A stretch of DNA of 63,142 nt from an uncultured Candidatus Saccharibacteria bacterium (GTDB lineage: Bacteria > Patescibacteriota > Minisyncoccia > Phycocordibacterales > CAIZLB01), in contig CAZFOD010000006.1 in NCBI GenBank assembly GCA_964520545.1, positions 1-63,142 of the forward strand. Reading direction: 5' to 3'. The notes beneath the pieces are model-generated. The model was given only the letters and a program-made list of their open reading frames with translations. It had not been told where the DNA came from and searched no databases. Shown in pieces: positions 2,715 to 54,090 of the stretch. The stretch's first letter is position 1. Every line of letters starts with the position of its first letter. The position numbers and the translations under genes were made by a program.

Positions 2715-3110
2715 CTACTTTTTATCTAAATCCTTCTCTAGGCCCTCTACGAGTGGTGAGTCACCTCGCAGGTCTTGAATATAAAGAATATGGTTTTTGT
2801 TTATAGAAATAGTGTCCCGAGGAGCCTGAACTTGCTCTGTAATGGCTGTGACTACCGGTGAAGAAGACGTCGCCGAATCGACACGGAGTAAATATACATT
2901 CCTTAGCGTTAGCATCGGGGCAACAGGCACATTAACTCCCCTTCCGAAATATATCTGACCATTATCAAGAAACACGGCTTTCCATGAGAGAAGATTTGCA
3001 ACCAGAGAAATGAGTAACCAGGCAACTAGCAAAATTCCTGCAATGAGGGAAATCTTTTTGCCCTTTGTCATCGTAACGTTTGAATCTCCTTTTTTTCTCT
3101 TGAGTTCCAT
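2715..3110 (-). CDS. membrane-anchored hypothetical protein (131 aa)
   Basis: Basic N-terminus followed by a TM helix (ISLIAGILLVAWLLISLVANLL). Lies immediately downstream of the giant surface protein gene. Confidence 0.6.
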   Translation of the reverse strand: MELKRKKGDSNVTMTKGKKISLIAGILLVAWLLISLVANLLSWKAVFLDNGQIYFGRGVNVPVAPMLTLRNVYLLRVDSATSSSPVVTAITEQVQAPRDTISINKNHILYIQDLRGDSPLVEGLEKDLDKK

Positions 3111-3127
3111 AATATTTTAATTATACA

Positions 3128-6100
3128 TTATTCCGCTGATTCTGTGGGAGCAGGGCTAACAGTTGGTATTACTTCTTGAGGCGGGGTTACTACTTCTGCT
3201 GCAGACTCTGTCGTCGGAACTATTTCTGTATTACCTGAACTATCTACATCTACCACCTCAACAATTGAAACCTCTACACTCAATGCTGTGTCGGCAGGCG
3301 TAGCGGGGGTAATAGTTTCGAGAATAACACTTGAGCTAGCTGAATCAGATACTGCCGATGACTCAACAATAGGAGCCTCCATAACATCAACTAGAACTGT
3401 TGTTGTTGTTGTAGTGGTGGTAGCAGCGTTATCCACAACAATCTGTTCTGTTTTATTTTTAGAATTATAAACCTTAACGAAGAACCAATCGAATGAAATA
3501 TCCTCCGTAAAAGGTTTCGCAACTCGCACCACAAAACCTTGCCCTGTTTTCTTTTCAGCCACATAAAGAGGCACTTCGGTTACCGATGTTAGAGTAAGGT
3601 AAATACTTGAATGCGAATCAATTTGGCTATTTGAAATAAATATCTCTGTTTGACCAGCGGGCATCACACCAGATCCAGCAATCTGATTTTCACCACTTGG
3701 CAAGAAAAGATTTCCCCCTGGCAGAATTGTTAAGGTATCAACAAAGAGTTGTTTGATATTCGCAACAAGTGAGACAAGTTTGTTTGTGATAGTGATAGAA
3801 ACGTTATCAGCTTCGTTAATCACCGCTACCGCAATATCAGCAACACTCATTCTGGCCGCATCGATAAGCTGAGTCATTGTATCTTGTGTTTCTGGCTTGG
3901 TGATATCTGTCAGTTCAGACACTGTTTTTGCAGCATCTGTAATATCACTCCAATTGATTGTTTCCACCCCGATAAACACGGTCACCCTTGAGTCTTCCCC
4001 TTCAGCTCCGCTATATGAAGAAAGTGCACGTCCTACTACACGTCCAGGCTTAACCGCCTTTGCAGCGACACCCGGAGCGCTACCTGCGGTAATATAATCA
4101 CCAATTTTTATTGGACCATTTTCAAGAGAAACCTTCACAGGCACACGTCCAGCCAAAGCAATCGGTACAGCACGAGCACCGTCAATGTGCGCATCTTTTT
4201 GACTCAATCGGAGAGCAGGGTTCTCAGAATAAATACCTATAATATCTCTATCATTCTTTCCTACTGATTTTCTTACGAAGCCCTTTTCAGTTGTATCTAA
4301 ACTTACCAAATCTGTAGCAGCAAGCGCATCATCTCTCGTCGGGTAATCTTCAGCGAGGTCGTATGCACCCGTCATAGTATTCACGCCGTGACTAAACACG
4401 AACTTACCAGTACCTTGATTTCCGGTATTATTAAAAGCGGTTTCCTCTGCTTGAAATTCAATCCAGGCTTTATTAGCAAAACCGTTCTGAATACCATCCG
4501 CTTCATCAGAATTTGCAGCAAACTGAAGTGCATAGGACTCTGCCTCAGCACCACCATATGAATATACCTCAGCTGCAGTGGCCTTTGCAGAACCAACCCA
4601 GAGCTCATCATTGTACACGGTCATTGAATGCACACCAGTAATAGAGCTAGTAACACCTCCGAGCGCTCCCGCAGTAGAACTTGAAACCCTGCTCCATGTT
4701 GATCCCACATCAACCTTATATACTTCAGCAATACCAGTTGAATCCACCGTACCGACAAACAAATCATCATTATAGACTGACATCGCACCGATTTGGTCGA
4801 TACCGGTCTGGGCGCCAACGTCTTCTGCAATAATACCTGCGGTGGAGCTCGAAATAGCTTGCCAGTTTGTACCAGTGCTCGGTGGAACTCCATCCCACTT
4901 AACGACACGGGCCGTACCAGCACCATCATTGATACCCGCGTAAAGTCGACCGTTATATACAGCAAGGGTTGTTACGTTGTCAACAGCTGTAATGGTACTA
5001 GCGATACCCAAGGAGTTGGTACCTGAGTATGTACCCGCTGTACCGAGGATCGTGAAGCCGGTTCCCGATGTTCCTTGACCGTCATATCTATAAATACCTC
5101 CTGCATTTGTCTCACTCGTACCGATGTACAAATACCCGTTTAAGGTGGCCATGGCACTTACTCTATCCACATTGGCTGTAGCGCCAATAGTACCAGCGTT
5201 TGCAGGAATGTTACTCACCTTTGTCCAGGAAGCCGCCGAAGGGGTTGTCGTTCCATTGTATCTATAAACCTCCGCTCCGTTCGTTTTTGCAGTACCAATA
5301 TATAGAGACCCGCCAAACACGGTCATCGCCGACACTTCATTTATTGCAGTTGTAGTACCATTTCCTCCAATAGCACCCGCGGTCGAGCTCGAAATTCTCG
5401 TCCATACACTGTTTCCATCATATCGATATACTTCAGCGGCGCCCGTTTCTTTTGTACCAAGATACAATTGCCCATTATAAATATTCATTGTCGAAATACC
5501 GTCGATATTCGCAGTGCCTCCGCTAGCAACAGTACCCGCTGTTGCATTCGAAACCTTTGTCCAATTAGTGCCTCCATCATATCGGTACACTTCAGCTGCG
5601 TTAGCTTTTGTTGTTCCAACATACACAGAACCGTTGAATACTGCCATAGCGGTTGTAGAAGCAATTGAAGCAGTGTCGCCCGTATCAATTGTTCCAGCCG
5701 TACCACTTGACCGAACCGTCCAAACAGGAGCACTGTCAGGTTTTGCTCCGATTAAAATATTTCCAGCGACATGCAATTTTTCTGACGGAGATGTAGTACC
5801 AATTCCAATATTACCATTTACATCAATTCGCATTCTCTCATTCGCAGCCAAAGTTCCACCAGTGTGAAATTTAATAACGCCACTTGAAGAGGTTGTAGCT
5901 GTACCAATGGCGAGGGCTGTTGACTGCGAATATAAATAAGCATCATTCGCCCCTGTTATGGTAAAGGCTGGATCATTATATGTAGAACTATTAATTCCAA
6001 GGTCAACGAAATAACTAGTATCATTACCGTTATCCGCAGTTGCCACAAAATCCGTAGACGCTGATGTTGAGGCAGACTTATTCTGCGCCACTACCTGCAT

Positions 6101-7312
6101 ATAACCCGTAGTGCTTCCTATAAAACTAGCGATTGAATTAGCAAAACCGGAACTACCATAAGAACCAACAATCAAATTTGATGTTGTAGTGGTACCAACA
6201 ACAGACAATGCAGTGTCGGGTGTCGTAGTACCGATACCCACATTTCCTCCATTCAAATATGATACCCCTCCCGGATTCAAAACGTTCTCCAATACACCCG
6301 ATGTATTGTATTGCATCAAACTGTGGTCCGAGCCTAAAAATCTAACTATATAATTACCCGCTCCAACTCCTGCTCCGTCGGTAATATCAACAAAACTATT
6401 TCCACCAAGTCTAAGGCCCCCATTTGCAGACGTCAACCAAGCGGAAGTGTACTGCTCAGCAGAACCTCCTCTTCCATAAAGACTGATTACCGCCTGGGAG
6501 TTTGCCAACGTAGGGGCAACTATCAATCCCCCCGTTTGACCTTGAGGATTAATTTCAGCCAGACCAGAAGCAGCAACCTTAAACAATGTTCCTTCAGAAG
6601 AAGTCGCTACCATAAAAACATTACTCGCTGAACCGCTTGTACCCCTAACCACAAGATTTGCAGAAGGAGTTGTGGTACCCAACCCAATTTTCCCATCGTT
6701 CAATATTGTAAATACACTTGTACCACTACTCTGTATGTCAAAAATCTTTCCGCCTCCTAGCTGGTTAAGCGTAAAGAGCGTACTGGCAGTAGAAGAGGAA
6801 AGTGTCCCAGGCTGATCAGACCGCAAGTATTGTGTTGAGCTTGCAGTGCCGAGATAAAGAGCTTGAATAGCAGCTGGCACCGCGCCAAGCTTCTTTCGAG
6901 GCGACATTTCCCCGTCCCATGATGGAGTAGTTGTTCCGCCAATATTTACACCGAGATAAAGCGTTTGATTAAAATCGACGCTCGTAATTGACGTCACTTC
7001 ACCGAGCATTACAGAAAATAGACCGTTTGTAACTTGAACCTTATCACCACTTGTACGTGTTTCAGTCCAAACAGGAGAACCACCGCTTGATACGGTATAG
7101 AGTTTAAACTCCATATTATATGTACCGTCGGAAACAGAAACCCCCGCATTATTTGTTAATTTCCCCTGATAATTTATTTGTTGGTTTATATCAGCACTTG
7201 CAATAGAACCAAAAGCAAAAAATGAAAACATTGCGATAATAATCAGTAACACAAAAAGCTTTTTAAACACATTGAAACCTATATGTGGATTTTTTAATGT
7301 AGCTCTTATCAT
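3128..7312 (-). CDS. giant secreted/anchored surface fibre protein (1394 aa) with a 7-repeat beta-propeller-like region
   Basis: N-terminal signal/anchor (LFVLLIIIAMFSFFAFGSIASA). An INYQGKLTN..G..V.DGTYNMEFKLY...VWTE...V.V.NGLFSVMLG head module and Gly/Ser/Thr-rich fibre-like segments. Seven ~50-aa repeats (..S.M.V(Y/F)NG.LY.GT....AAEVYRYDG..W..(V/I)S..TAG), a poly-Thr run (ATTTTTTTTV) and a Ser/Thr/Val/Glu-rich C-terminal tail. Its ATG overlaps the stop of the upstream gene (ATGA). Confidence 0.85.
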   Translation of the reverse strand: MIRATLKNPHIGFNVFKKLFVLLIIIAMFSFFAFGSIASADINQQINYQGKLTNNAGVSVSDGTYNMEFKLYTVSSGGSPVWTETRTSGDKVQVTNGLFSVMLGEVTSITSVDFNQTLYLGVNIGGTTTPSWDGEMSPRKKLGAVPAAIQALYLGTASSTQYLRSDQPGTLSSSTASTLFTLNQLGGGKIFDIQSSGTSVFTILNDGKIGLGTTTPSANLVVRGTSGSASNVFMVATSSEGTLFKVAASGLAEINPQGQTGGLIVAPTLANSQAVISLYGRGGSAEQYTSAWLTSANGGLRLGGNSFVDITDGAGVGAGNYIVRFLGSDHSLMQYNTSGVLENVLNPGGVSYLNGGNVGIGTTTPDTALSVVGTTTTSNLIVGSYGSSGFANSIASFIGSTTGYMQVVAQNKSASTSASTDFVATADNGNDTSYFVDLGINSSTYNDPAFTITGANDAYLYSQSTALAIGTATTSSSGVIKFHTGGTLAANERMRIDVNGNIGIGTTSPSEKLHVAGNILIGAKPDSAPVWTVRSSGTAGTIDTGDTASIASTTAMAVFNGSVYVGTTKANAAEVYRYDGGTNWTKVSNATAGTVASGGTANIDGISTMNIYNGQLYLGTKETGAAEVYRYDGNSVWTRISSSTAGAIGGNGTTTAINEVSAMTVFGGSLYIGTAKTNGAEVYRYNGTTTPSAASWTKVSNIPANAGTIGATANVDRVSAMATLNGYLYIGTSETNAGGIYRYDGQGTSGTGFTILGTAGTYSGTNSLGIASTITAVDNVTTLAVYNGRLYAGINDGAGTARVVKWDGVPPSTGTNWQAISSSTAGIIAEDVGAQTGIDQIGAMSVYNDDLFVGTVDSTGIAEVYKVDVGSTWSRVSSSTAGALGGVTSSITGVHSMTVYNDELWVGSAKATAAEVYSYGGAEAESYALQFAANSDEADGIQNGFANKAWIEFQAEETAFNNTGNQGTGKFVFSHGVNTMTGAYDLAEDYPTRDDALAATDLVSLDTTEKGFVRKSVGKNDRDIIGIYSENPALRLSQKDAHIDGARAVPIALAGRVPVKVSLENGPIKIGDYITAGSAPGVAAKAVKPGRVVGRALSSYSGAEGEDSRVTVFIGVETINWSDITDAAKTVSELTDITKPETQDTMTQLIDAARMSVADIAVAVINEADNVSITITNKLVSLVANIKQLFVDTLTILPGGNLFLPSGENQIAGSGVMPAGQTEIFISNSQIDSHSSIYLTLTSVTEVPLYVAEKKTGQGFVVRVAKPFTEDISFDWFFVKVYNSKNKTEQIVVDNAATTTTTTTTVLVDVMEAPIVESSAVSDSASSSVILETITPATPADTALSVEVSIVEVVDVDSSGNTEIVPTTESAAEVVTPPQEVIPTVSPAPTESAE
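4537..5680 (-). repeat. seven tandem ~150-nt coding repeats (beta-propeller blade-like) inside the giant protein
   Basis: Protein-level repeats ending in AEVYRYDG / AEVYRYNG / GGIYRYDG / ARVVKWDG / AEVYKVDV / AEVYSYGG, spaced about 50 aa apart. Coordinates are approximate. Confidence 0.7.
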
Positions 7313-8868
7313 TTTCTAAAAATATTACCTAGCAAACCACTCGCCATGTTCAAAACAATTTCTGCAAATCGAACAAGACCAGTCATAATCTTTACACTGG
7401 ACCCAACGATTATACCAGTAATAACCTTAGCTTTACCGAAAAAACCTCGTTCATCTTGTTTATTACTTTTATTTTCTGAGACAAAAATTCCCCTGGCTAA
7501 CACAATCTCTTTTTGACCGTCTGATCGAGAGGAAATATAGAACTCATATTGCCTTCCTTCATAAAAACTTGGAATAGTTACTTCATATAAATCTGTATTT
7601 TTATTTTTTGTTAAAATAAACCCAAATCGTTGGTCAGTAAGGGTGCCTGCCACACAAAAACCAAGAATATTTTCTTTATATAGATTTTGATCAATACCAT
7701 TTACAACTACAGACACGGGCTTAGAATTATCTATGATGACCTGCCCTTCAAACGAAGGCTTTACTAAGGAGCCTTCCTGGTAAAACTTGATGGTACTATT
7801 ATCGCGAACAAGTTCGGGTGTTGAAATACGATTACCAATTTCTGGAGTAAGTGAGAAGCGACTGACGCAAAATGGCTGATTCTGCTTATCCACAAATGCG
7901 ACCTCTTCATCTCCAGCCCCACCTGAAAAACCTCCGAGCCTTCCAAGATTTTGCATTGAATTTATAGTATTAAACATATAAGGCAAATCATCTTTCAAAA
8001 GGGGGTCAATTTTTTCAGGTATATTATTTTTACTTTGTGGTTTTTTATAGAGTACATGCAAAATTGCAGGTCCCGAGGCGTTACCCGCGCTATCTATTGC
8101 AAAAATCGAATAATAATAAAACTGACCATCTCTTACTGAATCATCTGCTGCATATTGTCCACTTCCTTCGTATACGACCTTACCATCAAGCAAATCCTTT
8201 GGATAAAAGATAGTGGACCTTACTAATCTTACAAAAGCAAAATCAACGGCACTTGGATTATTCCAGCGAAATATTACTCTCTCCTTATCAACCACATTTG
8301 AAAAACCCGAAGGGGCTGATGGAGATGTTGTATCAGGGATGGGAAGCGTCCTGAACTCACCCTCAATGTTAAACCTCTTTCCTCTGCTATCAACCAATGG
8401 TATATGGTAGTAATAAAGAGTAGAAGGATCTAATTTGTCTACCGTAACACTAAAGATATTATGGTACCAAGACTGCGCCAAACTCCCCGCTTCGTATTGA
8501 GGTGTTTTGCCCCAAGAAACAGTTGCGAGCGCTGGATACAAAGTACCAAAAGAAATTAGCGCACTATTTACAGACGGCACCAATGTGACCTTGCTTGAAA
8601 AAAAGTCATTAAACTCTTTTAGTGATGTTGTCGCTGATTGTTGATCTTCAACCGAAGTAAAGAGTGTACCTCGACCGTCAGTAGCAGAACAATCAGAAGG
8701 ACATGATCCATAATTTTCTCCAATCACTGACTCACAAATTGCATTTGAGTTACAAGCTGCAACGTCCAATTGAATCTGTACCGAACCTGCCGTTGCCAAA
8801 TGTCCTGAAAAAAATATAAGTATCAATGTAAAAAAATACAACAATAAATAACTCTGAAAAAACTTCAT
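7309..8868 (-). CDS. secreted protein with Cys-rich N-terminal module, fibronectin-III-like domain(s) and a C-terminal hydrophobic segment (519 aa)
   Basis: Signal peptide (LLLYFFTLILIFFSGHLATA) and a Cys cluster (CNSNAICESVIGENYGSCPSDC). FN3-like strings are PSAPSGFSNVVDKERVIFRWNNPSAVDFAFVRLVRS...YYYSIFAIDSAGN. TGA stop is followed directly by TAA. Confidence 0.8.
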   Translation of the reverse strand: MKFFQSYLLLYFFTLILIFFSGHLATAGSVQIQLDVAACNSNAICESVIGENYGSCPSDCSATDGRGTLFTSVEDQQSATTSLKEFNDFFSSKVTLVPSVNSALISFGTLYPALATVSWGKTPQYEAGSLAQSWYHNIFSVTVDKLDPSTLYYYHIPLVDSRGKRFNIEGEFRTLPIPDTTSPSAPSGFSNVVDKERVIFRWNNPSAVDFAFVRLVRSTIFYPKDLLDGKVVYEGSGQYAADDSVRDGQFYYYSIFAIDSAGNASGPAILHVLYKKPQSKNNIPEKIDPLLKDDLPYMFNTINSMQNLGRLGGFSGGAGDEEVAFVDKQNQPFCVSRFSLTPEIGNRISTPELVRDNSTIKFYQEGSLVKPSFEGQVIIDNSKPVSVVVNGIDQNLYKENILGFCVAGTLTDQRFGFILTKNKNTDLYEVTIPSFYEGRQYEFYISSRSDGQKEIVLARGIFVSENKSNKQDERGFFGKAKVITGIIVGSSVKIMTGLVRFAEIVLNMASGLLGNIFRK

Positions 8869-8928
8869 TACTTCTTAATAATAACACATTTCAAGCTAGA
8901 AGTTATCTACTGGCAATCTGTACAACAA

Positions 8929-9696
8929 CTAAAGTGTTATGGCTGTGACTGTGATTGTTGCGGAATAACCGTCCGCTGCATCCTGTATCTTGGTTGCACC
9001 AATTTCTACCCTATATTTTATTGTGGTTGTCGCTCCACTTGGGGTATTTGGAGATGCTCCAGAAGAAATTACCCTTGGAGTCGTAGAAAGCCCGTCCCAA
9101 CACTTATCGGTGGTATCATTTGTACCAAAATTACAGCTTGCACCATTATCTTTATATCTCCCGACAATATCCGCACCCTCGGGACTAAACCCAAATGCCG
9201 CCGCTGAAGAAGAAACACTGAAGCTATAATCAGGGTCTGCACCGACAGGAACGTAGTCACTAATAGAAGATTGAGCAGCCTTCAATGCAGGAGTAGTGGA
9301 AGCAACAACAGTAAGCTGATACCCTGCTGAACTATTAGTTGTAACAATCCAAGAAGAAGACCCCGTAGCTACACCCCCAGCCAACCCACTGATAGAAGAA
9401 AGCGCCACATCGCTTGCTGAACTGATAGTGATATAAGTAGGAGTTGAAGACCCTACAACTATTCTGTAACCACCGCTCATTTGATAATTTGTACTCGAAG
9501 ATAGCCCTGTTGCAACCTCTCCCACAGTATCACTTAATCCATAATTAGTACTAGTAGACACATCCAGACCGCCAACATTAATACTGTCTGAATCAATTCT
9601 GTAACTAGTGCTTTGCATTACGTATGCGAAGAGAGAAATAGGGGTAATTAAAGTGACGATAATGATTGCTGTATATAATTTAGAAAAAAACTTCAT
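8929..9696 (-). CDS. secreted Ser/Thr-rich beta-rich protein, paralog of 10736..11398 (WxL-domain-like, tentative)
   Basis: Signal peptide. The core SSWIVTTNSSAGYQLTVVASTTPAL..SSISDY and the C-terminus GYSATITVTAITL align by eye with TTWNVKTNSSSGYTLTVQATSTPAM..NSIIDY and GTYTATVTATATAS of the paralog. Confidence 0.75.
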   Translation of the reverse strand: MKFFSKLYTAIIIVTLITPISLFAYVMQSTSYRIDSDSINVGGLDVSTSTNYGLSDTVGEVATGLSSSTNYQMSGGYRIVVGSSTPTYITISSASDVALSSISGLAGGVATGSSSWIVTTNSSAGYQLTVVASTTPALKAAQSSISDYVPVGADPDYSFSVSSSAAAFGFSPEGADIVGRYKDNGASCNFGTNDTTDKCWDGLSTTPRVISSGASPNTPSGATTTIKYRVEIGATKIQDAADGYSATITVTAITL

Positions 9697-9730
9697 ATGT
9701 ATTTACCCCGATTTTCTTTTAAAAAGTCTT

Positions 9731-10684
9731 CTACTTTCTCTTAAGCTCAAACTTCTTTGTGAAGAGATAGAAAAGGAACCAGATAAACATTCCTGCAAGA
9801 GCGATAATCCCCACATAAGTCCAAGGAATAACCCAGAAAGAAATATCTTCTACATCAACAAGATCTCCGTAGCCCCGGTGTAATTCAAGATGAGCTGTGT
9901 ATCTTCCTGCTAAAAACTCCTTTTGCCAAGCTACCTGCCTATACCTTAAAGAGTCAGGTAGGGAAAAATATGCATCCACGGGAAGCTCTGCAACCTTCTG
10001 ACCTAAAACATTTTTTATTGTGATAATACCGTAGGGCACCAAATGCACAGTACCATTATTTCTAAAGAGCATTTCAAATGAAAGCGGGCCTTTTTGTAAA
10101 AATCCCATCCTTTCCCCTGTGACACGAAAATCTTCGAGCTGACCTTCTTCTTTTACTGGACCGTTAATTCTAATGAAAAAAAGTACACCTACTCGAGAAA
10201 TAATTCTTGTATTTGCAGCGGCGCTAATCTCTGAGTCTGAGGGTATGTTTGAAACAATTACCGAAGAATAAAAACCGCCCGGCTGAGCGTCTTTCGGCGC
10301 AGTTACAGTGACAGGAACTTCAATACGCTGACCGAGATCAAGACTGAACTTACTGGTATCTGGTGAAATATTATCTTTAAAAGAGTGCGGGCTTTTATCA
10401 TCACCCAAAAGCACGACTGGTGTCTCTGGGTTTTGCGATCCAATAAAATCCTCAACTTCAATTTTGAAGTCAACCTTTCTATTAATACGACTTATTACAG
10501 AAATATTCTTTGTAACAGTTTCTCCTGGATTTAAAAATATTTCAATTTTACCCGGCTCAAGGACAAAATCACCCTTATTCTCCACCCCCGTATTTGTGAT
10601 AGTGTAGGCGTATACGGGGAAAATAGGAATTAGAATAGCGACTAGGACAATCGCACGCACCGATGTTTTATAAAGAGATTTCAT
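9731..10684 (-). CDS. cell-surface protein with two beta-sandwich-like halves and a C-terminal TM anchor (DUF916/DUF3324-like, tentative)
   Basis: 317 aa with a signal peptide. First half: F.LEPGKIEIFLNPGETVTKNISV....PKDAQPGGFYSSVIV. Second half: FRNNGTVHLVPYGIITIKNVLGQ...GRYTAHLEL. C-terminal TM helix plus a basic tail (IIALAGMFIWFLFYLFTKKFELKRK). Confidence 0.7.
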   Translation of the reverse strand: MKSLYKTSVRAIVLVAILIPIFPVYAYTITNTGVENKGDFVLEPGKIEIFLNPGETVTKNISVISRINRKVDFKIEVEDFIGSQNPETPVVLLGDDKSPHSFKDNISPDTSKFSLDLGQRIEVPVTVTAPKDAQPGGFYSSVIVSNIPSDSEISAAANTRIISRVGVLFFIRINGPVKEEGQLEDFRVTGERMGFLQKGPLSFEMLFRNNGTVHLVPYGIITIKNVLGQKVAELPVDAYFSLPDSLRYRQVAWQKEFLAGRYTAHLELHRGYGDLVDVEDISFWVIPWTYVGIIALAGMFIWFLFYLFTKKFELKRK

Positions 10685-10735
10685 ATCAGACGATTATATA
10701 CGCAACCAGCCTCAGGGTCTAGCCCCTGCAAGATA

Positions 10736-11398
10736 TTAGGAAGCTGTGGCTGTGGCTGTGACTGTTGCGGTGTATGTACCTGAAGGGATGTAAACTCCAT
10801 TTTGTTCAACAGCATAACAAACTGTGGTATCAACACCTGAAGTTGTTGTTGTTGAACTTCTTGTTGAAACCTGAACACCTGAGGTGGTAAAACCTTTATA
10901 TTTTAAAGATGTAGAGATTGAATTCGCGCCACCAGTAGTACAAGTAGAACCGGTACCCCATGTTCCAGTTGGAGTATCTGTACCATAAGCTGAATATCCG
11001 AAATATGCGAAACCTGAAGTTGCAGTCCAAGTATTTGGTGAACCTGTCTGGTAGTCAATAATAGAATTTGATCCTGAAGTCATCGCAGGAGTACTTGTTG
11101 CCTGCACAGTCAGGGTATAACCGCTGGAACTATTTGTCTTAACATTCCAAGTAGTAGTACCTACCGCTGTGTTTTGAGACACACCGAGGGCTACGCTCAT
11201 TGATGCATCTGAGGGGCTAGTGATGGAAACACCTGATGTAACATTGAGTGTAATAACGACGTTGTCAGTTGCTGTCACAGCCTCTGTCGCTGCAGGCTCA
11301 ACAATTGCAAATGTAAGTGCGACTACTAATAGTGTTGCTAAAGAAGAAAAAAATGCTTTTTTTATCAGAACTATATTCATATAGAAACGATTATACAC
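10736..11398 (-). CDS. secreted Ser/Thr-rich beta-rich protein, paralog of 8929..9696 (likely start M7 at 11380)
   Basis: Signal peptide (FFSSLATLLVVALTFAIV). Paralogy with 8929..9696 is described under that feature. TAA stop. Confidence 0.75.
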   Translation of the reverse strand: MYNRFYMNIVLIKKAFFSSLATLLVVALTFAIVEPAATEAVTATDNVVITLNVTSGVSITSPSDASMSVALGVSQNTAVGTTTWNVKTNSSSGYTLTVQATSTPAMTSGSNSIIDYQTGSPNTWTATSGFAYFGYSAYGTDTPTGTWGTGSTCTTGGANSISTSLKYKGFTTSGVQVSTRSSTTTTSGVDTTVCYAVEQNGVYIPSGTYTATVTATATAS

Positions 11399-11799: not shown

Positions 11800-13310
<1,511 letters not shown>

Positions 13311-13472
13311 AAAACTCAAAACAGAACAAAAAAAGGATATGATGCTGCTAATTCACTGTGCCTGATGCACAATGATTAGCTGTTTAGTTTTCAAAGAAGG
13401 ACCTACTATCCTAAGCTCATTTTTCTTCGGAAATTACCCGAATAAAAATGCCTTCGGTAAGGCGTAGTGGTT

Positions 13473-21031: not shown

Positions 21032-21142
21032 GTTCTGGCGACGAGCTACTTTCCCCGTTGCCGAGTATCATCGCCTCTGAAGGGCTTAACTTCTGAGTTC
21101 GGAAAGAGATCAGGTGTGACCCCTTCGATGAATCACCAGAAC
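21032..21142 (-). rRNA. rrf: 5S ribosomal RNA
   Basis: The reverse complement reads GTTCTGGTGATTCATCGAAGGGGTCACACCTGATCTCTTTCCGAACTCAGAAGTTAAGCCCTTCAGAGGCGATGATACTCGGCAACGGGGAAAGTAGCTCGTCGCCAGAAC. It carries the CCGAACTCAGAAGTTAAGC signature and a closing helix GTTCTGG/CCAGAAC. Confidence 0.9.
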
Positions 21143-21230: not shown

Positions 21231-21303
21231 AGGGCCTAGGAGGACTCGAACCTCCAACCAGTGCTTTTGAAAGCATCGCTCTAACCAATTGAGCTATAGG
21301 CCC
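21231..21303 (-). tRNA. tRNA-like gene with a non-canonical (16-nt) anticodon arm; identity undetermined
   Basis: 73 nt with acceptor GGGCCTA/TAGGCCC and discriminator T. D-arm GCTC AATTGGTTA GAGC, T-arm GGAGG TTCGAGT CCTCC and a 5-nt variable loop. The anticodon arm ATGCT-TTCAAA-AGCAC is one nt short of the canonical 5+7+5. Confidence 0.8.
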
Positions 21304-21916
21304 GTTTTAACGGAAGAACAAAATTGAAGATCTAGTTTTATCATCCACCACAGGCTTTGCCGAGGTGATTTGCGACGAGCGTTCTTCCACAGGGAAGACC
21401 AGTTCCGAATCCGCAGAAGACTCGCCAACGTGTGATTTGTCAGCGTACTCGTTCGCAAGAGCGAAAGAATCCCCGATGTGGATCCCGCGGTGGATGATGA
21501 AACTATACCCTCTTTTCAATTCTCAATATGGTCTTTTCTTCTCAAGTACCAAAAAACAATAAATAAATGACTGTGTGTCTGCGCAGGATTAAAATCCTAA
21601 CGCGGACGTGTGATCTTTATATTTCCTAATAGGAATCGGCGCATTAGTACACCTCGACTGAACACATTACTGTGCTTACATCTAGTGCCTATCAACGTGA
21701 TAATCTCTCACGGGCCTATAACGATACCTAATCTTGAAGCTGGCTTCGCTCTTAGATGCTTTCAGAGCTTATCCATTCCCGACATAGCTACCCTGCAATG
21801 CCACGGGCGTGACAACAGGTACACCAGAGGTCAGTTCACCCCGGTCCTCTCGTACTAAGGGCAAATCTTCTCAAGTATCAACGCCTACAGTAGATAGGAG
21901 ACCAACCTGTCTCACG

Positions 21917-22303
21917 CATGTTTTCACACATTCCTGTGTGCATTGGACTATATCTTCATTCTTTTCAGAACTCAATCAAAGTATAAATGGAACTCATACT
22001 TTAACTGAAGTCTAAAAGTCGAATGGTTTACGTGTAGTCTCTACGGGTACCTTTCACTCTCGAAAGAGTTTGGGCTTCCCTCGGTATTATCCTCGCAAAC
22101 TGTTTAGTTGTCAGTTTCCGTTGGGATTCTACCGAAATCAGTAAACTAAGTCATCGTATATTTCTATACGCGACCGCCGTGATGTTGACCCATTATTGGG
22201 TCAATAAGTTGTCATAACAGTGTTCATGTTTCTCACATGTTTTTAAGCCTCGAGGATTCAGACGGTTCAATGATCAAATTACTTGCGTAAATATAATCTC
22301 TGA
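21917..22303 (-). mobile_element. ORF-less intron-like insertion (probable group I intron) in 23S domain V
   Basis: The universally conserved string ...GGGTTCAGACCGT|CGTGAGACAGGTTGG (E. coli ...GGGUUUAGAACGUCGUGAGACAGUUCGG) is interrupted by 387 nt. The 5' exon ends in U and the insert ends in G. The insert contains GNRA-capped hairpins and a GUCUGAA segment complementary to the 5' exon end. Confidence 0.65.
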
Positions 22304-22330
22304 ACGGTCTGAACCCAGCTCGCGTAACTT

Positions 22331-22363
<33 letters not shown>

Positions 22364-22966
22364 TCTCCAGCCCCAGGATAAGTTGAGCCGACATCGAGGT
22401 GCCGAACTGTATCGTCGATATGGACTCTTAGATACAACCAGCCTGTTATCCCCAGAGTAGCTTTTGTCAGATAATCTTCCGCCGCGTCTAACGCGAACGG
22501 TCGGTTCACTATGTTCTGCTTTCGCATCTGCTCGACACTGACGTCTTACAGTTAAGCCAGCTTATGCCATTGCACTATCGGCACGGTTTCCATTCGCGCC
22601 TAGCTGACCTTAATAAACTCCTCCGTTACTTTTTGGGAGGATAGCGCCCCACTAAAACTGCCCATCAGATACTGTCTCTCGCGGTTTTTTCCCTCGAGGT
22701 TAGAATGTATATTTTTACAGATTGGTATTTCACTGACGAGTCCATCCCGACCGAAACCGGAATCTCAACCTCTCCCAACTATGCTACGCAGTAAAAACAT
22801 ACACCCAATATCAAATTGCAGTGAAGCTTCTGGGGTCTTTTCGTCTAGCTGCAGGTAAGCGGCATCTTCACCGCTATTGCATTTTCACCGAGCGAGTCTC
22901 CGAGACAGTTCCCCAGTCATTACACCATTCGTGCGCGTCAGAACTTACCTGACAAGGAATTTCGCT

Positions 22967-23188
22967 CTTCTATTCCTCAAAGAAGGACTCTATCTTAATC
23001 CACTCTTGCGAGTTGGGATCATGGTAGTTGGTACTCTTTTTAAACCATTTTGGACCATCAATGCATTACGGCATTGGAGGTAGCTTCCTCATGGGTGTAA
23101 TTTAAACTGTGCTGTTCATCTGATTACTTTTTCAAAAACACTACTGTAACAGTCCTAGTCCTTCAGCATTCATTTGCATGAATGCTGA
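22967..23188 (-). mobile_element. ORF-less intron-like insertion (probable small group I intron) in 23S domain IV
   Basis: The conserved string CGGTCCTAAGGT|AGCGAAATTCCTTGTC is interrupted by 222 nt. The 5' exon ends in U and the insert ends in G. The insert begins with a perfect 11-bp hairpin capped by GCAA. Confidence 0.6.
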
Positions 23189-23223
<35 letters not shown>

Positions 23224-24639
23224 CAGGGCTTACAACAGTCAGCCACATATTGCTATGCTACCGCCGTCGTTTGACCTTCTGGCATTGGTCAGGTGTCACC
23301 CCCTATACATCGTCTTGCGACTTCGCAGGGAGCTGTGTTTTTGGTAAACAGTTGCCAGGGATACTTTTGTTGCAGCCCTCATTGCTGAGGGCGAGCCTTA
23401 TTCCGAAGTTACGGCTGCTTTTTTGCCGAGTTCCTTGGAGACCTCTCACTCGTTCGTCTTGGTCTACTCGACCTGATCACCTGTGTCGGTTTGCGGTACG
23501 GTTTTCGCGTATATAAGTTTAGAAGATTTTCTCGGAAGCGTGCTTTGTAGAATTATCAGGGAACGAATCCCCTGCGTCTCCACTCACCTTGCAAGTACCA
23601 TTAAAGGTAGTTCCCGGATTTTCCTGGAAACCTCACTCAGCGCATGGACAGAAATCCAATAATCCGCTCTACATACTACCCTTCGTCCCTTCATCACTAT
23701 ACGCAAAAGTCATGGAATATTAACCATGTGTCCATCAGGTACGGTTCTCACCATCCCCTTAGGCCCGACTAACCCTTGGATGACAATCATTGCCAAGGAA
23801 ACCTTGATCTTTCGACGTCGAAGTTTTTCACTTCGATTGTGGTTACTTGTGCCAACATTCTTACTTCTTGACGCTCCAGCATGGGTCACCCCTTTGCCTT
23901 CATCGCGGACAAGAACACTCTCCTACCGCGTGAAATGTCCGAAGACAAATCACACCCTCAGTTTCGGTACTATGTTTTAACCCCGTTTATTTGCGGCGCG
24001 AAATCTCTCGATGAGTGAGCTGTTACGCTATCTTTCAAGGATTGCTGCTTCTAAGCAAACCTCCTCATTGTCTCAGAAACTTCACCACCTTAAGTGTACT
24101 TAACATAGATTTAGGGACCTTAAATTGAGATCAGGGCTGTTTCCCTTTTGTCTAGTGGAGCTTAGCCCCCACAGACTAACTGCCATGTTCTTGACCTCCA
24201 GTATTCGGAGTTTGATAGGACTCGCGAGATTTCTCCCTGTCGAGTCCTTCCAGTGCTCTACCCCTGGAGGGAACACATGACGCTAACCCAAAAGCTATTT
24301 CGGAGAGAACCAGCTATTACCAGGCTCGATTAGCTTTTCACTTCGACCCACATGTCATCCGAATGCGTTGTACGACAAACCGGTTCGGTCCTCCATCTGT
24401 CTTTCGACAAACTTCAACCTGCACATGGGTAGCTCGCTCTGGCTTCGGGTCTAATGAATACTACGTACGCACTATTAATACTCGGTTTCCCTATGGCTCC
24501 ATCCTCGCGGACTTAGCCGAGCAGTATTCATTAACTCGTTGGCTCATTCTTCAATAGGCACGCCGTGACGGATCGCATAAATGCGTCCGCGCCGACTCCT
24601 TGTAGGCGTATGGTTTCAGATCTATTTCACTCCCCTCTC

Positions 24640-24682
<43 letters not shown>

Positions 24683-25511
24683 ATCATAAAATGTATTTAG
24701 CCTTGCCGGTTAGTTCCGGCGGATTCCTCCGAGCCATTCGTGTCTCGAAGTACTCAAGAATGACAGTAAGAGATATTTCGTTTTCACATACAGGGCTATT
24801 ACCTTCTTGGGCCGTGCTTCCCAGCACGTTCTGTTAACGAAACATTTTGTAACTCTTTGAATAATAAATTATTCTACTGTCACCTTACAACCCCGAGCTA
24901 CCCAATGGAGTGCAGCATTGCTGCTACCTTCCATTGGAAAGCTCGGTTTGGGCTCATTCGTTTTCGCTCGCCGCTACTTACGAAATGTTTCTCTTGCGAG
25001 ATTGTTTTCTTTTCCACCAGGTACTGAAATGTTTTACTTCCCTGGGTGCGCATCTTAGTTAAGACTAAGATTACAGATCAAGTCTGTAGGGTTTCCCCAT
25101 TCGGAAATCTTCGGATCAAAGGTTACTAGGCACCTCCCCGAAGCATATCGCCGCCATGTCGCGTCCTTCATCGCCATTTTATGTCTAGGCATCCACCATA
25201 CGCCCTTATATTTCCTATTAGGAAATATAAAGACCACAATCATTTTTCTATTGCTTTCCTACCTGCCCACCGCGTCATCTTGAGAAATGACATTGCGGTG
25301 GTTGTCATGCAGACAATCGGCCAGCTTGAAGATTGCTCTTCTTACCTACCGACCATCACCACATGACATCTGCCCTCGGTGTTGAAAAGACCAAATGAGC
25401 AATCTAGGTAACTGCTTGCGCAATCATTCTAGATCGTTCATACCGGGGCAGAATTAAATTATCAAATTGCAGTCGTTCGGTATTCGTCTTATGAAAGTGG
25501 CTTTCTCTAAC

Positions 25512-28307: not shown

Positions 28308-31300
28308 CTATTGAGACTCAGCTAGAATACCAACTTCTGAACTAAGCCTCTGGAATTGATAGAAAAGAATGGTGGTATCACGCACGACGGGCTCCACCAA
28401 TTTCCCCACCCTTAGATTCCTTTGTAAATGATTATATACCTTTAAAGCCTTTGATAGTCGCTCCACCTCAGAGGCGAGCTGCTTTGCAACCCTTTGAATA
28501 TTTCCCTTCTTCAAAAGAAGCGTCGCATCATCCAGTTTCTTAAGATATATTTCGCGAATAATTCGACTTTGTATCTTACTAGAGATTACACGTCGTGCGG
28601 AAGCAATGGATTCATTAATATTAGATTCTCTGGATTGTGTATCTGGAGAAATCTGTTCATCGATCTTGCCGTCGGCATTGTAATCAATCGTCATAACGCT
28701 CGACGAGGCTGGAATGAATTCAGCGGTCATACCTTCAATGGTTGGAACATTCGAATATTCAACATCCTTCAACTCAGTGTCTCCTTGAAACTCTGTTGCG
28801 TTAAACCTGAATGTTCCTGTATCTAACCCTTGAAGGACAATTTTACTTGGAAGTTCAGAGGTTATTACAGTCTTCGCTTCACCAAAGTTCACATACTGAC
28901 TGCCAGGTATTTCTTCAACGCTTACACCCACCTCATCCTCAGTCGCTTCTTTTAACAATCCTGTTCTGTTTCCATCAGAATCATATACCAATATGGAAAC
29001 GGGTGAATGTACAATGAACTCATATCGCTTCCAAGAGTTTGTTGACGTCGCTCGTTTACTTACAAAAGGTGGCAAGACTGTAAGATCTTTTTTCACAAGC
29101 AAGGATATCATCTGCTGAATTGATGATGCATTCAAGATGTTTGCATGTCGATAGTTTTTCTTATCCCACAAACTTAGCGATCGGAGATCCACTGAGTAAA
29201 CATTTCCACTTCTAACAACCGGGTCTCCTGCTAGGACAACACCGTCTCCGTCTCGAGAGGTTATCCTACTTCTCTCAAGCTCCGTCTTTTTTCCTTTCTT
29301 TCCATACTCGTAGGTAATCCCCTTTAAAGTTTCATTACCTACTCCCACCAGACTTGTCACTTCGAGTAGTCCACTGAGTGGTGTATTGAAAAGATCATCG
29401 ATACGCCCATGTATTTCTTCTGACTTCTTTAATAGTCCGGTATTTAAAACCGCGGGCTCATCAACTTTTGTGGATGATTTTCTGTCTCCACCAGAAGCCA
29501 TCAAGAAACTTGCCAATCCTTGCCTAGTCTTTAGTGCATTACCATATTTTATTGCCAAGTCAGAATCTGTAGGAAAAGTAACCACAGGGGAAGATAATGA
29601 ACCGAAAAACTTTTGAGCCGGAAGCAATTCATACGCTGACGGCATATTCATTCCTAAATTTCGAGCTGTAGATTTACTAAGAATTATGCCTCCTAAAATA
29701 CTTTGACTATCTCCATGGAGAAGATCTGCGACGGCCTGCGGAGTTCCAAACTCTGGAACCGCCACCATAATCAGCTGGTCAACTTTGTCCACCTTTCCAG
29801 CGGCTATCAAACTATTTACAAAGTTTTTTGCAACAAGTCCGCCATTGCTATGCGCCACAATAGAAACTTTCCCCGTCTTTGATTCTTTAACTAAACCATC
29901 AAACATCGACCCTAGAGACGTTGTCGCCCCTTTGTCTAAATATATTGTCTCATTTGCAATGTTTAGAGAGGAACGACGCCAGTCATATGGAAACGGTTTC
30001 CACGCAGTAATTACGCCGCTAGAAACTAGATTCTTTAGAAAATCAGTAAAGCCTCCATACACATCAAACTGGAACAGTGGACCTACGATATTTGTCTTCC
30101 CGACCACATCACGTGTATATATGTTTTTTTCTAAACTAATACCACTACTATCGAGAAAAAGCTTTTTAACATCGGCGTTCGTGTTTGGCTCCCATAGCTG
30201 ATTTTCTGATCTACTTTTTACATATAACCGGCTACCCTCTAAACCTGGGAGGAATAAGATACTGGAACAACATTTTTTCTTACTAGGCTTTTGCTTCAAC
30301 CATGGCGAAAAGACAACATCGTCTGTAACTGATTGCCCCTTTCCGGTAGCATTTGCCCTCTCGTTATACGGGCCCGTTTCACTCCCCCACCAATTCGTAA
30401 AAGCATTCACAGAACTACCATGTGCGATAATTCCTGCAGAAATATTCTTCTCCACACTGCTACTAGCTAAAAAGACGGAAGACCTGTAAGCCTCAATACC
30501 AATATCATTTCCCTCAAGAGAACTGTTCTTCACCGTCACATTCCCGTTGTCGTACGACAAAATGGCACCAGCTCCGCCTTCAGAGATTAAAACATCATCA
30601 AGCATTACTGATGCACCACTAAACACTTCTACCCCTGTAGCTGAAGAATGTTTAAACACAGTGTCAGAGATAGAGACACTGCTGTTCTCATTTACCCCCG
30701 AACTATCAAAAATACTGATTACGCTTTGATTCCCAGAATTGGTAAATATGTTTTGAGTTATCATCCCCTGAGAATTGTTGTAAACCTCCAGAACGTGAGG
30801 GGTTCTAATTCTTGAAAAAGAATTATCCACTAGAGATAGTGTACTGCTAGCATATGATGCGATGAGGGTCTTCCCTGACTCTACGTCTTCAAAATGTGAA
30901 TGGAGAACTTCGACGATTCCGCCGACAGACTCAATTACAGAATCTGTTCCAGATACATTAGCAAAATTCATATGAATCCCTCCCCCAAGAACATTTATCG
31001 CGGCGCCTAAATTACTCGAACCCACTAACTCAAGCCGAACGGGTTTTGAAGCGCTACCATTTATCTTCAAATTTCCATGTACCCTCATCTGCCCTCCAGT
31101 AAACTGTAATGTCGTCCCAGCTTCAATAGACAGTTCCTTCCCGGGAGGAATAATAATTTCATCTGATAACAGGTACGGACCAAGAGAAGCGGGAACTAAT
31201 GAATGTTCATCTATAAAAGATTGGGTTATTTCTGTCGAAGCAAGAGCACGCTGTACCGATCCAAACAAAATGAATGCAATAACTACAAAGATGATGGTGT

Positions 31301-31325
31301 TTAATTTCATACCACCATTATCCAA
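28308..31325 (-). CDS. secreted right-handed beta-helix + LCAT-like alpha/beta-hydrolase (lipase/acyltransferase) protein (likely start M6 at 31310)
   Basis: Signal peptide. Parallel beta-helix-type repeats (aa ~60-310) end in NWWGSETGP. The hydrolase core follows: LFLPGLEGSRL, PYDWRRS and the nucleophile elbow IVAHSNGGLVA. The C-terminal ~380 aa are unassigned. Confidence 0.8.
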   Translation of the reverse strand: MDNGGMKLNTIIFVVIAFILFGSVQRALASTEITQSFIDEHSLVPASLGPYLLSDEIIIPPGKELSIEAGTTLQFTGGQMRVHGNLKINGSASKPVRLELVGSSNLGAAINVLGGGIHMNFANVSGTDSVIESVGGIVEVLHSHFEDVESGKTLIASYASSTLSLVDNSFSRIRTPHVLEVYNNSQGMITQNIFTNSGNQSVISIFDSSGVNENSSVSISDTVFKHSSATGVEVFSGASVMLDDVLISEGGAGAILSYDNGNVTVKNSSLEGNDIGIEAYRSSVFLASSSVEKNISAGIIAHGSSVNAFTNWWGSETGPYNERANATGKGQSVTDDVVFSPWLKQKPSKKKCCSSILFLPGLEGSRLYVKSRSENQLWEPNTNADVKKLFLDSSGISLEKNIYTRDVVGKTNIVGPLFQFDVYGGFTDFLKNLVSSGVITAWKPFPYDWRRSSLNIANETIYLDKGATTSLGSMFDGLVKESKTGKVSIVAHSNGGLVAKNFVNSLIAAGKVDKVDQLIMVAVPEFGTPQAVADLLHGDSQSILGGIILSKSTARNLGMNMPSAYELLPAQKFFGSLSSPVVTFPTDSDLAIKYGNALKTRQGLASFLMASGGDRKSSTKVDEPAVLNTGLLKKSEEIHGRIDDLFNTPLSGLLEVTSLVGVGNETLKGITYEYGKKGKKTELERSRITSRDGDGVVLAGDPVVRSGNVYSVDLRSLSLWDKKNYRHANILNASSIQQMISLLVKKDLTVLPPFVSKRATSTNSWKRYEFIVHSPVSILVYDSDGNRTGLLKEATEDEVGVSVEEIPGSQYVNFGEAKTVITSELPSKIVLQGLDTGTFRFNATEFQGDTELKDVEYSNVPTIEGMTAEFIPASSSVMTIDYNADGKIDEQISPDTQSRESNINESIASARRVISSKIQSRIIREIYLKKLDDATLLLKKGNIQRVAKQLASEVERLSKALKVYNHLQRNLRVGKLVEPVVRDTTILFYQFQRLSSEVGILAESQ

Positions 31326-53500: not shown

Positions 53501-54090
53501 GATGTTCCGCATCGAGGACAGAATGGCATAACTTTGTAGCTTTCATACACCAAACCTTTTTTGTTAAGTTCGGAGAAAGACCACATAACAGATTCCATGT
53601 ATGAGGCATCCATAGTGCGATAGTCATTGTCCATATCCACCCATCTACCCAATCGAGGAATGATTTGTTTCCACTCATCTGCATACGTAAGTACACTCTC
53701 ACGTGCCTCCTTGTTAAACTTCCCGACACCAATCTCCTCAATATCTTTCTTGTTCTTGAGACCTAGTTTCTTTTCGATCAAGTTCTCAATTGGTAGACCG
53801 TGACAGTCCCATCCCCACCGACGAGGTACATTGTATCCGCGCATCGTCTTGTATCGAGGGATGGCATCTTTAACAGTTGTTGGTAACACATGTCCGTAGT
53901 GAGGTAGGCCTGTTGCGTATGGTGGACCATCATAAAATACAAAATTGCCCTTCGGCGAAGGCTTGTTCAAACTCTTCTGGAATATGTCGTTCTCTTTCCA
54001 GAATGCTAGGATCCTGTTTTCTCGTTCGTGCATGGTTGAAACTTCTAGTAGCAACAAATATAGCCACTGTTTGTAGGCATATAGTAGCAT
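50530..54090 (-). CDS. ileS: isoleucyl-tRNA synthetase (type 2) with an inserted histidine-phosphatase domain; likely start M20 at 54033
   Basis: PPYATGLPHYGH (HIGH), the editing domain TTTPWTLPGN, WAVSRSRYWGSPIPVW, DVWYDSGS and KMSKSL. About 195 extra residues between PIPVW and DLHRPYID carry RHG...R...E...H motifs. Confidence 0.95.
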   Translation of the reverse strand: MLLYAYKQWLYLLLLEVSTMHERENRILAFWKENDIFQKSLNKPSPKGNFVFYDGPPYATGLPHYGHVLPTTVKDAIPRYKTMRGYNVPRRWGWDCHGLPIENLIEKKLGLKNKKDIEEIGVGKFNKEARESVLTYADEWKQIIPRLGRWVDMDNDYRTMDASYMESVMWSFSELNKKGLVYESYKVMPFCPRCGTSLSNFEVAQGYKDITDISAFVKFELKDELGTYVLAWTTTPWTLPGNVALAVNADLDYVKVEFENSKYWVTRGLIEKVFGTVEGVKILEEAKGSALVGKSYLPVFPYYAVKGTMVGDNEDRRDNAWKIYAGDFVTAEDGTGIVHIAPAYGEDDMNLARRENLPVIHHVGTDGLFVPAVTDFAGQSAKPIDDHQKGDIEIIKYLAHKHGDREEYIALFKKEKYIHSYPHCWRCNTPLLNYATSSWFVKITDLKDRLVEENKKISWVPKEIGEGRFGKWLEGARDWAVSRSRYWGSPIPVWKGEKTGKTEFISSVEELKDKIRKDGRGNEFFVMRHGQATCNLTNTISSKKLDESTLTDAGKEEVRVSAEAMKARLGPVENVVIYASDFSRTKETAEIVAGVIGYEKTSIIFDKRLREINAGDFDGSDWGSRTNYFNNLFDHLYKPVPNGESVEDVKKRIAEFFYDIETKHKGARVLVVTHGLPLRLSLNVAKGITMRDLTRYGWADVSDPTASVHVCDFVPLPCNESFELDLHRPYIDAVTWKNDTGEVMRRVPEVFDVWYDSGSMSFAQNHYPFEHKEEMLAENNAIFPADFIAEGLDQTRGWFYSLLNLSKALFDKSAYKNVIVNGLILAEDGRKMSKSLNNYPDLLPTVEKYGADALRYFLISSPAVHGEEVAFSEKSLDEVNKKLFNRLENVYVFYNTYATGVVSDGALPKNNHVLDKWIVFELNKLISDVTNALDAYQLDKAARPIADFIDELSTWYLRRSRDRFKGDDEGDKREALATTQYVLATLAKVMAPFVPFIAEEIYQKVKPSNAALSVHLEDWPEPGEVDGVLLDSMSTARKLVEAGLALRSKAGIKVRQPLSSFTYDASVTLSDELAAIIADELNVKKVEKGDVIAIDLNITPELKSEGQVRELMRAVQEMRKNAGLSPSDEIVLNIETDSVGKNVIDAHSAMFTKAVQATSIVYGSVEAEEIHADGLSAKIAIVKGRE

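Follow-up and report, generated by a model that had tools for sequence, protein, structure and literature searches.

Five consecutive genes on the minus strand, at positions 3128-11398 of a 63,142-nucleotide stretch of contig CAZFOD010000006.1 (the window, by which the whole stretch is meant throughout), appear to encode an usher-less, chaperone-assisted adhesive surface appendage of Paceibacteria whose relatives are the Pam pili of Saccharimonadia, within the Candidate Phyla Radiation (CPR), on one side and the WxL/WxLIP complexes of Firmicutes on the other, a reading to which we assign a probability of roughly 55%. The source of the window is a freshwater-metagenome CPR bacterium. The genes are designated g1 (10736-11398, 220 aa, with a GTG start and an alternative ATG 18 nt downstream, at 11380), g2 (9731-10684, 317 aa), g3 (8929-9696, 255 aa), g4 (7309-8868, 519 aa) and g5 (3128-7312, 1394 aa); g6 denotes a small neighbouring open reading frame (ORF) past g5. 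All five products g1-g5 carry a hydrophobic N-terminal segment of the Sec signal type and the region has no enzymatic Pfam match; signal peptides, the lack of an enzymatic motif and the five ORFs with their coordinates had been stated in an earlier interpretation made from the letters alone (the sequence-only reading). The stop codon of g4 and the start codon of g5 do overlap, as described there, in an ATGA at 7309-7312. Because searches of the single sequences against Pfam, PHROGs and the PDB were of little use (Pfam matches of the single window proteins are almost nil, and none of the five matches a PHROG), the proteins were scanned at the level of their families.

The five genes form a real operon that is conserved across the Paceibacteria. 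The closest relatives of the cluster proteins carry the names Paceibacterota, Parcubacteria or Taylorbacteria and come from metagenome-assembled genomes (MAGs), and a protein collection clustered at 90% contains 376 relatives of g2 and 832 of g3. In a synteny sample of 80 species-representative loci from GTDB genomes, whose ORFs were labelled by profiles of the four smaller families, the order g2-g3-g4 (chaperone-like, PamT-like, FN3) is kept in 74, and the remaining six show part of it, four being without g2 and two without g4. Directly upstream of the g2 homolog stands a pilin paralog in 51 of the 69 loci with room on the contig, and a giant g5-like gene follows downstream in 44 of 50. Two distant relatives repeat the order with products of ~215 aa, ~320 aa, ~255 aa, 440-513 aa and a giant, and in one of these the flanks are wholly different and the cluster order is still kept. 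An exhaustive HMMER search with the g3 profile (E<=1e-3, protein clusters at 50% identity) yields 2,537 cluster representatives with the PamT-like module, and 15 of the best 150 of these are single-ORF fusions of g2 to g3 (for example P0254, P0260, P0263, P0269, P0270, P0276-P0278, P0283, P0284, P0286, P0340 and P0370). The fusion junctions are clean, running from the transmembrane (TM) helix of g2 through a short basic loop to the signal sequence of g3; only that loop separates the TM helix from the second signal-like segment. The fusions are independent Rosetta-stone evidence that g2 and g3 work together.

Taken together, the conserved gene order and the g2-g3 fusions exclude a chance juxtaposition of orphan secreted proteins, the outcome that the sequence-only reading had proposed to look for by comparing gene order among relatives. 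The same two observations refute the related idea of a degraded prophage tail-fibre region. The tail-fibre-like character of g5 and the near lack of Pfam matches for single window proteins would suit either explanation, whereas retention of the order in 74 of 80 species, the existence of fusions, the lack of PHROG matches for all five proteins and the housekeeping genes that flank the cluster (SecDF, 16S rRNA and a pyruvate kinase-like gene) speak so strongly the other way that we give them next to no weight.

The link to WxL complexes comes from g2. Its AlphaFold2 model (pLDDT 89.3) consists of two beta-sandwich domains, residues 28-147 and 164-285 (DNA 10244-10603 and 9830-10195, minus strand), followed by a helix at residues 288-311 within a hydrophobic segment at 281-311 (TM helix, DNA 9752-9823) and a basic tail, KKFELKRK; a signal peptide precedes domain 1, and a variable loop and the conserved strand TRIISRVGVLFF are listed between the two domains. 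The model thus bears out the two-domain protein with TM helix and basic tail that had been read from the letters. In Foldseek comparison with the PDB the top match is chain 9i25_C, the E. faecium locus A WxLIP bound to a long WxL protein (E=1e-11), with the apo WxLIP 9i1y also at E~1e-11, and the alignment to the WxLIP chains extends over ~270 columns and covers both domains. RbmA, CfaA, CsuC, Caf1M, DraB and FimC come next, at E 1e-10 to 1e-7. That the closest solved structure is an E. faecium WxLIP, followed by chaperones of the chaperone-usher (CU) pathway, supports the description of g2 as a DUF916-like anchor.

Sequence profiles agree with this assignment for the first domain. PF06030 (DUF916/WxLIP_PGBD) matches 13 of 58 members of the g2 family (best E=1.4e-8) and not the window g2 alone, a remote homology that lies below Pfam-threshold membership. 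Aligned by hhalign with nine genuine WxLIPs from plasmid-borne WxL clusters, the g2 family is related to them with a probability of 91.7% (E=7.6e-7), the 121 aligned columns ending after domain 1, and the only significant matches of the g2 family profile in the PDB are two EfmWxLIP1 chains (E=7e-4). A WxLIP/DUF916-like protein with a CU-chaperone-like fold is therefore supported. Of the earlier label, a DUF916/DUF3324-like anchor, the DUF916/WxLIP half holds; DUF3324 (PF11797) has no sequence match in any of the 58 family members.

The position of RbmA among the top g2 matches (rank 5, E=3.6e-10) raises a different possibility, namely that g2 is a structural tether equivalent to PamR or RbmA and that the subunits self-assemble free of a chaperone, like TasA, archaeal threads and cannulae. 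PamR, with two FnIII domains and a TM helix in ~33 kDa, is indeed close to g2 in size, and TasA and cannulae are found among the neighbours of the pilin model described below. RbmA, however, superposes poorly on g2 (TM-score 0.25-0.34, root-mean-square deviation ~15 A), a closer fit being obtained with CU chaperones and WxLIP (TM-score up to 0.56); the sequence homology of g2 is to the DUF916 domain of WxLIP; and an architecture of two FN3 domains and a TM helix is already supplied by g4. A chaperone-free assembly with g2 as its tether is judged improbable.

The link to Pam pili comes from g3, which consists of a signal peptide, a triple "S-x-N-Y" repeat at residues 28-85 (DNA 9442-9615, minus strand) and a beta-sandwich at residues 88-255 (DNA 8932-9435). 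It matches the NCBIfam model NF058579 (CPR-type pilus protein PamT) at E=5.9e-11 and 42.2 bits, a score far below the equivalog cutoff of 240 bits, and the same model is matched by all 55 of the g3 family members compared with it (best E=2.6e-17). The similarity sits in the triple repeat just past the signal peptide (S..Y.I.SDSIN.GG / STNY.L.DT.GE..TG / STNY...AGY), and a 63-aa repeat fragment alone still matches at E=5.6e-8. By these matches in sequence g3 is best described as a distant homolog of PamT and not an equivalog. The statement that the system has not been characterised is consequently outdated, since the nearest sequence relative of g3 is a component of a CPR pilus solved by cryo-EM. 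In the AlphaFold2 monomer of g3 the sandwich has pLDDT >90 and the repeat segment <50, and the Foldseek neighbours of the model are mostly subunits of donor-strand fibres: TasA, CfaB, CS20, the PapG pilin domain, Csu, FimA/G and cannulae.

The g1 product is a paralog of g3, as had been proposed: the two share 40% identity over 83 aa (BLASTP, E=7e-13) across the core "W.V.TNSS.GY.LTV.A..TPA", and the C-terminal ending "Y.AT.TVTA" is seen in both families. The signal peptide of g1 is followed by a short extension, TDNVVITLNVTSG, in which hydrophobic residues alternate, and then by a beta-rich domain. Each protein has a conserved pair of cysteines, C153/C194 in g1 and C188/C199 in g3. The model NF058581 (CPR_Pam_pilin_C) is matched weakly by two of 43 members of the g1 family (E=1.2e-3) and by none of the g3 relatives. 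As a small secreted paralog with a pilin fold, g1 would be the repeating or connecting subunit.

The identification of these paralogs as WxL-like, a further element of the sequence-only reading, is rejected at the level of sequence. The Pfam WxL model (PF13731) matches none of 55 members, hhalign against 12 genuine WxL domains gives probabilities of 1.3% for the g3 family and 3.0% for the g1 family, and the W-x-L motif is absent from both window proteins, in which "GY.L.V" alone resembles "GW.L.V".

The repeat and sandwich of g3 also occur as a module on other proteins. In 33 of the best 150 representatives found with the g3 profile the module stands at the C-terminus behind other N-terminal regions, among them Laminin_G_3 (14 of the 33) and DUF2341 (six), as well as glycine-rich, toxin receptor-binding, carbohydrate-binding module and FN3 regions. 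The combination of a lectin with the g3 module is like that of FimH and PapG, in which a lectin domain is joined to a pilin domain, and like that of the "large WxL" proteins.

The g4 product has a possible N-terminal beta-strand (SVQIQLDVAA), a Cys-rich motif CN.N..CE...GE....CP.DC (DNA 8689-8754, minus strand), two FN3-like domains at ~DNA 8059-8586, a variable C-terminal half and a weak C-terminal hydrophobic segment. The FN3 assignment made from the letters is clear for the family, in which 41 relatives were scanned and fn3 matches 35 and Pur_ac_phosph_N 37 of them, and falls below threshold in the window copy. The claimed C-terminal hydrophobic segment has a similar standing, being present and weak in the window protein and developed into a strong TM helix with a basic tail in 36 of the 41 relatives. 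No frameshifted TM helix for the window g4 was found in another frame, and the window protein may be a secreted or weakly anchored variant. None of the NCBIfam Pam models matches g4, which by its architecture would serve as a PamR-like base or tether.

The g5 product begins with a signal peptide and a conserved N-terminal MAT-like domain (~DNA 6563-7192, minus strand), followed by three copies, at residues 207, 356 and 500, of the shaft motif "G(N/K)(I/V)G(I/L)GTT.P...L.V.G", by an array of ~50-aa repeats "AEVYRYDG..W..VS" (DNA 4433-5680; six clear, about eight likely), and by a C-terminal region that ends in a Thr/Ser/Val/Pro-rich tail. It matches NF053851 (Bdello_MAT_N) at E=3.7e-4 and 4.5e-5, under the 60-bit cutoff, and through the shaft motif it finds the Bdellovibrio fibres 8ond, 8ol4 and 8oml in the PDB (E 2e-8 to 1e-6). 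Among 50 relatives conservation is limited to the first ~250 residues, and in one relative the C-terminus is formed by Peptidase_S74, a chaperone domain of tail fibres. By sequence, then, g5 is a predicted fibre of the Bdellovibrio MAT/tail-fibre type with a variable distal part, and of the earlier term "fibre/propeller" the fibre stands; the propeller is simply consistent with the ~50-aa repeats. The repeat array and the C-terminal region find no matches in PDB sequence searches, and relatives of the repeats are occasionally tagged with propeller families; a propeller is a plausible guess. Arrays of the g5 type are also found beside Laminin_G_3 in ~550-aa proteins (P0439-P0482), one of them annotated as Pirellulales and another match as Anaerolineales, a distribution that makes the array look like a mobile module for binding.

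The MAT fibres of Bdellovibrio bacteriovorus share with g5 the N-terminal MAT motif and the shaft motif "ERMRI..(N)GN(V/I)GIGT..P..KL.V.G", and g5 further resembles MAT and phage tail fibres in its conserved base and variable tip and in the Peptidase_S74 end of the one relative. Unlike these fibres, g5 is encoded in one operon together with pilin and chaperone-like genes, and its distal part is the ~50-aa repeat array with the C-terminal region, again with no PHROG matches.

The Pam pilus of Ca. Mycosynbacter amalyticus (Saccharimonadia) is a donor-strand-exchange filament whose cryo-EM structure was reported in a 2026 preprint, with the components PamT, PamA/B/E, PamC/D and PamR (10.64898/2026.03.03.709456). 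PamT is the proposed tip pilin, PamA/B/E are two-domain pilins composed of an N-terminal domain, a linker donor strand and a truncated Ig C-terminal domain, PamC and PamD are PapD-like chaperones with C-terminal TM helices, and PamR is a tether of ~33 kDa made of an N-terminal strand, tandem FnIII domains and a C-terminal TM helix; paired cysteines in the pilins, a conserved tail-fibre-like neighbour of the pam operon and co-localisation with ATP synthase are also reported (10.64898/2026.03.03.709456). The operon described here resembles this system in being CPR-specific with all components exported by Sec, in a PamT-like subunit of ~25 kDa with the matching triple S-x-N-Y repeat, and in subunits with paired cysteines. 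Further likenesses are a protein with two Ig domains, a C-terminal TM helix and a CU-chaperone-like fold (g2, likened by description to PamC/D), a family with two FN3-like domains and, in most relatives, a C-terminal TM helix (g4, a possible counterpart of PamR) and an adjoining giant tail-fibre-like protein. It differs in that g3 falls far under the PamT equivalog cutoff, two-domain pilins of the PamA/B/E type are lacking and g1 has a single domain; that there is one chaperone-like gene here versus two; that g4, at ~520 aa and with its Cys-rich N-terminal motif, is much larger than PamR; that no ATP synthase genes are found within the 63-kb window; and that the host class is Paceibacteria.

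The WxL/csc clusters of Lactobacillales and Bacillales are defined by the occurrence, among a handful of neighbouring genes, of one or more WxLIPs and two or more WxL proteins, the WxLIP being composed of DUF916, DUF3324 and a TM helix and the WxL proteins being small or large (PMC10599100). It is reported, as a prediction, that WxLIP supplies a strand by which the sandwich of the WxL protein is completed (PMC10599100), which is the same principle as chaperone-subunit complementation. The earlier comparison with the composition of csc/WxL operons remains apt, in that one WxLIP-like protein occurs with two small paralogs and a big adhesin; moreover g2 has its closest structural and profile match in WxLIP, with the same domain order and TM anchor, and the subunit module can also form the C-terminal part of large adhesins whose N-terminal domains are lectin-like. 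On the other hand WxL domains are absent from the small proteins, no DUF3324 can be detected in sequence, the phylum is other than Firmicutes (Paceibacteria/Parcubacteria MAGs), genes for an FN3/TM protein and a MAT fibre are added, and no LPXTG protein or sortase motif is present in the coding frames of the window, whereas a small LPXTG protein is often part of WxL clusters. The CU pili of Gram-negative bacteria (Fim, Pap, Csu, CFA/I and Caf1) are likewise comparable in the two-domain chaperone fold of g2, for which the CU chaperones match at E 1e-9 to 1e-7, in the CU pilins that neighbour the subunit model and in the resemblance of the lectin plus pilin-type module proteins to FimH and PapG; here, in contrast, usher and outer membrane are both lacking, the chaperone-like protein is tethered to the membrane, and homology to CU proteins cannot be detected in sequence. 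The cluster thus lies outside strict membership of both the WxL/csc and the Pam families, yet shares the defining architecture with both.

On the appendage reading, g2 would, after export, hold the incomplete beta-sandwich of g1 or g3 by strand donation, as WxLIP does for WxL proteins and PapD for pilins. The PamT-like g3 would be the distal or adaptor subunit, and the short N-terminal strand of g1 (TD.V.VTL.VT) would enter a neighbouring subunit by donor-strand exchange, with g1 perhaps repeating; the product would be a short fibre or, at a minimum, a stalk of g3 and g1. Termination of the structure and its tethering at the membrane would fall to g4, as proposed for PamR. The putative secreted trimeric fibre g5 would be displayed on the structure and bind a host cell or substrate.

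The main rival to such an appendage is a non-filamentous platform of the WxL type, in which g2 remains in 1:1 complexes with g1 and g3, in the manner of WxLIP and WxL and either at the membrane or at the cell wall, and no polymer is formed, the g3-type module being a mere C-terminal anchor for adhesins and g4 and g5 being co-displayed adhesins. Much of the evidence given above can be read this way: the closest solved structure to g2 is a WxLIP in complex with a WxL protein, one WxLIP-like protein with two small paralogs is the commonest layout of WxL clusters, the "large" proteins that carry a passenger and a C-terminal g3 module mirror the large WxL proteins, the g2-g3 fusions suit a permanent 1:1 complex, and the cluster has no two-domain major pilin. 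However, g1 and g3 have neither a WxL sequence relation nor W-x-L motifs, the sole named relative of g3 is the proposed tip pilin of a filament that cryo-EM has demonstrated, the N-terminal extension of g1 with its alternating hydrophobic residues is typical of donor strands, and the signal-peptide-like segment between the fused g2 and g3 parts could allow them to be cleaved apart. The platform is judged the less likely of the two, on evidence that suits either, and is the most serious competitor of the chaperone-assisted appendage.

A number of observations weigh against the appendage reading. The likeness of g3 to PamT, besides falling well short of the equivalog cutoff, rests on the ~50-aa repeat, the beta-sandwich alone having no match to the PamT model, and none of the Foldseek neighbours of the g3 model reaches E<1e-3 (best E=6e-3, TM-score 0.25-0.55). 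The C-terminus of the window g4 (7312-7440) is weakly hydrophobic (Kyte-Doolittle value 1.5) with no convincing TM helix. Given RbmA as the fifth Foldseek match of its model, g2 could be the counterpart of PamR instead of PamC/D. Polymerisation and strand donation we infer by analogy with the systems just compared, and the attachment of g5 to the structure is pure conjecture. A two-domain major pilin of the PamA/PamB type is missing from the cluster, and a long filament is therefore not assured. No RNA-seq runs containing the locus were found.

Related loci show several variations on the operon. In ~17 relatives (L042, L050, L056, L064, L069, L080, L083, L085 and others) the place directly upstream of the g2 homolog is taken by a gene other than a pilin paralog; in most of these its product is a protein of 330-520 aa with a conserved N-terminal helix-turn-helix-like motif, DLYFDGKKYISSSRAAKISGY..DYIGQLCRDGKL.CRMVGRSWYV. 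This gene, which has no counterpart in the window, could encode a dedicated regulator. Some relatives have a second giant g5-like fibre gene upstream of the cluster or two tandem genes of the g1 type (L013, L020 and L072, upstream; L021, L027, L034, L052 and L081), which points to modular expansion of the system.

Directly past g5 lies g6 (2715-3110, minus strand), a small bitopic membrane protein of 131 aa. It was considered as a sixth core gene and rejected, being found past g5 in three of 18 relatives with room on the contig, and is probably a lineage-specific neighbour and not a core part. The cluster begins ~400 bp downstream of the 16S rRNA gene (11800-13312); a functional link between the two was likewise rejected, as the adjacency occurs in four of 86 loci and among close relatives only. 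Scans of the locus for promoters and terminators gave nothing above shuffled expectation. The rRNA genes are unlinked, with ~8 kb of protein-coding genes between 16S and 23S. The 23S gene (21624-25221) spans ~3.6 kb versus a 2.9-kb model and contains a group I intron at 21924-22215, so that further insertions are likely. Between the 5S gene (21033-21140) and the 23S gene, Rfam calls a tRNA at 21231-21303 (60 bits), which ARAGORN reports without assigning it an identity and with an unusual anticodon loop ("ca"). The window has two more large ORFs on the minus strand, at 28308-31325 (1005 aa) and 50530-54090 (1186 aa).

Paceibacteria are ultrasmall bacteria that belong to the most abundant and least understood of the CPR lineages, and we know of none in pure culture. 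The operon is rated here as a compact form, in Paceibacteria, of the Pam-type appendage of the CPR, with a holder protein demonstrably related to WxLIP/DUF916. To our reading, this link between a Pam-type CPR appendage and WxLIP/DUF916 is new and is made neither in the account of WxL clusters (PMC10599100) nor in the Pam preprint (10.64898/2026.03.03.709456), the latter containing no mention of WxL, DUF916 or Paceibacteria. It is possible, if doubtful when the proposal is taken as a whole, that the Paceibacteria operon, Pam pili and WxL/csc clusters have all branched from a single ancient "usher-less chaperone-subunit" system of monoderms. Such a system would be marked by a membrane-tethered two-Ig-domain protein of the DUF916 type that completes the folds of subunits, and in Paceibacteria the PamT-type module, three S-x-N-Y repeats with a beta-sandwich, would be a general plug for mounting lectins and giant trimeric fibres at the cell surface for host attachment. 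If this were true, WxL complexes might also be short donor-strand assemblies.

The Pam preprint that already exists, and an assembly pathway that is read across from other systems, moderate the importance of the finding for CPR biology. The operon nevertheless provides a concrete and widespread candidate attachment machine, with 2,537 clusters containing the PamT-like module, and extends the reach of Pam-type appendages, in a simpler form, beyond the Saccharimonadia and Microgenomatia. Its tie to WxLIP/DUF916 proteins, which in Gram-positive bacteria of the gut are its relatives both by sequence and by structure, suggests a shared principle of assembly in bacteria that lack an outer membrane. 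Natural candidates for determinants of host range are the variable tip of the fibre and those variants of the module that bear lectins.

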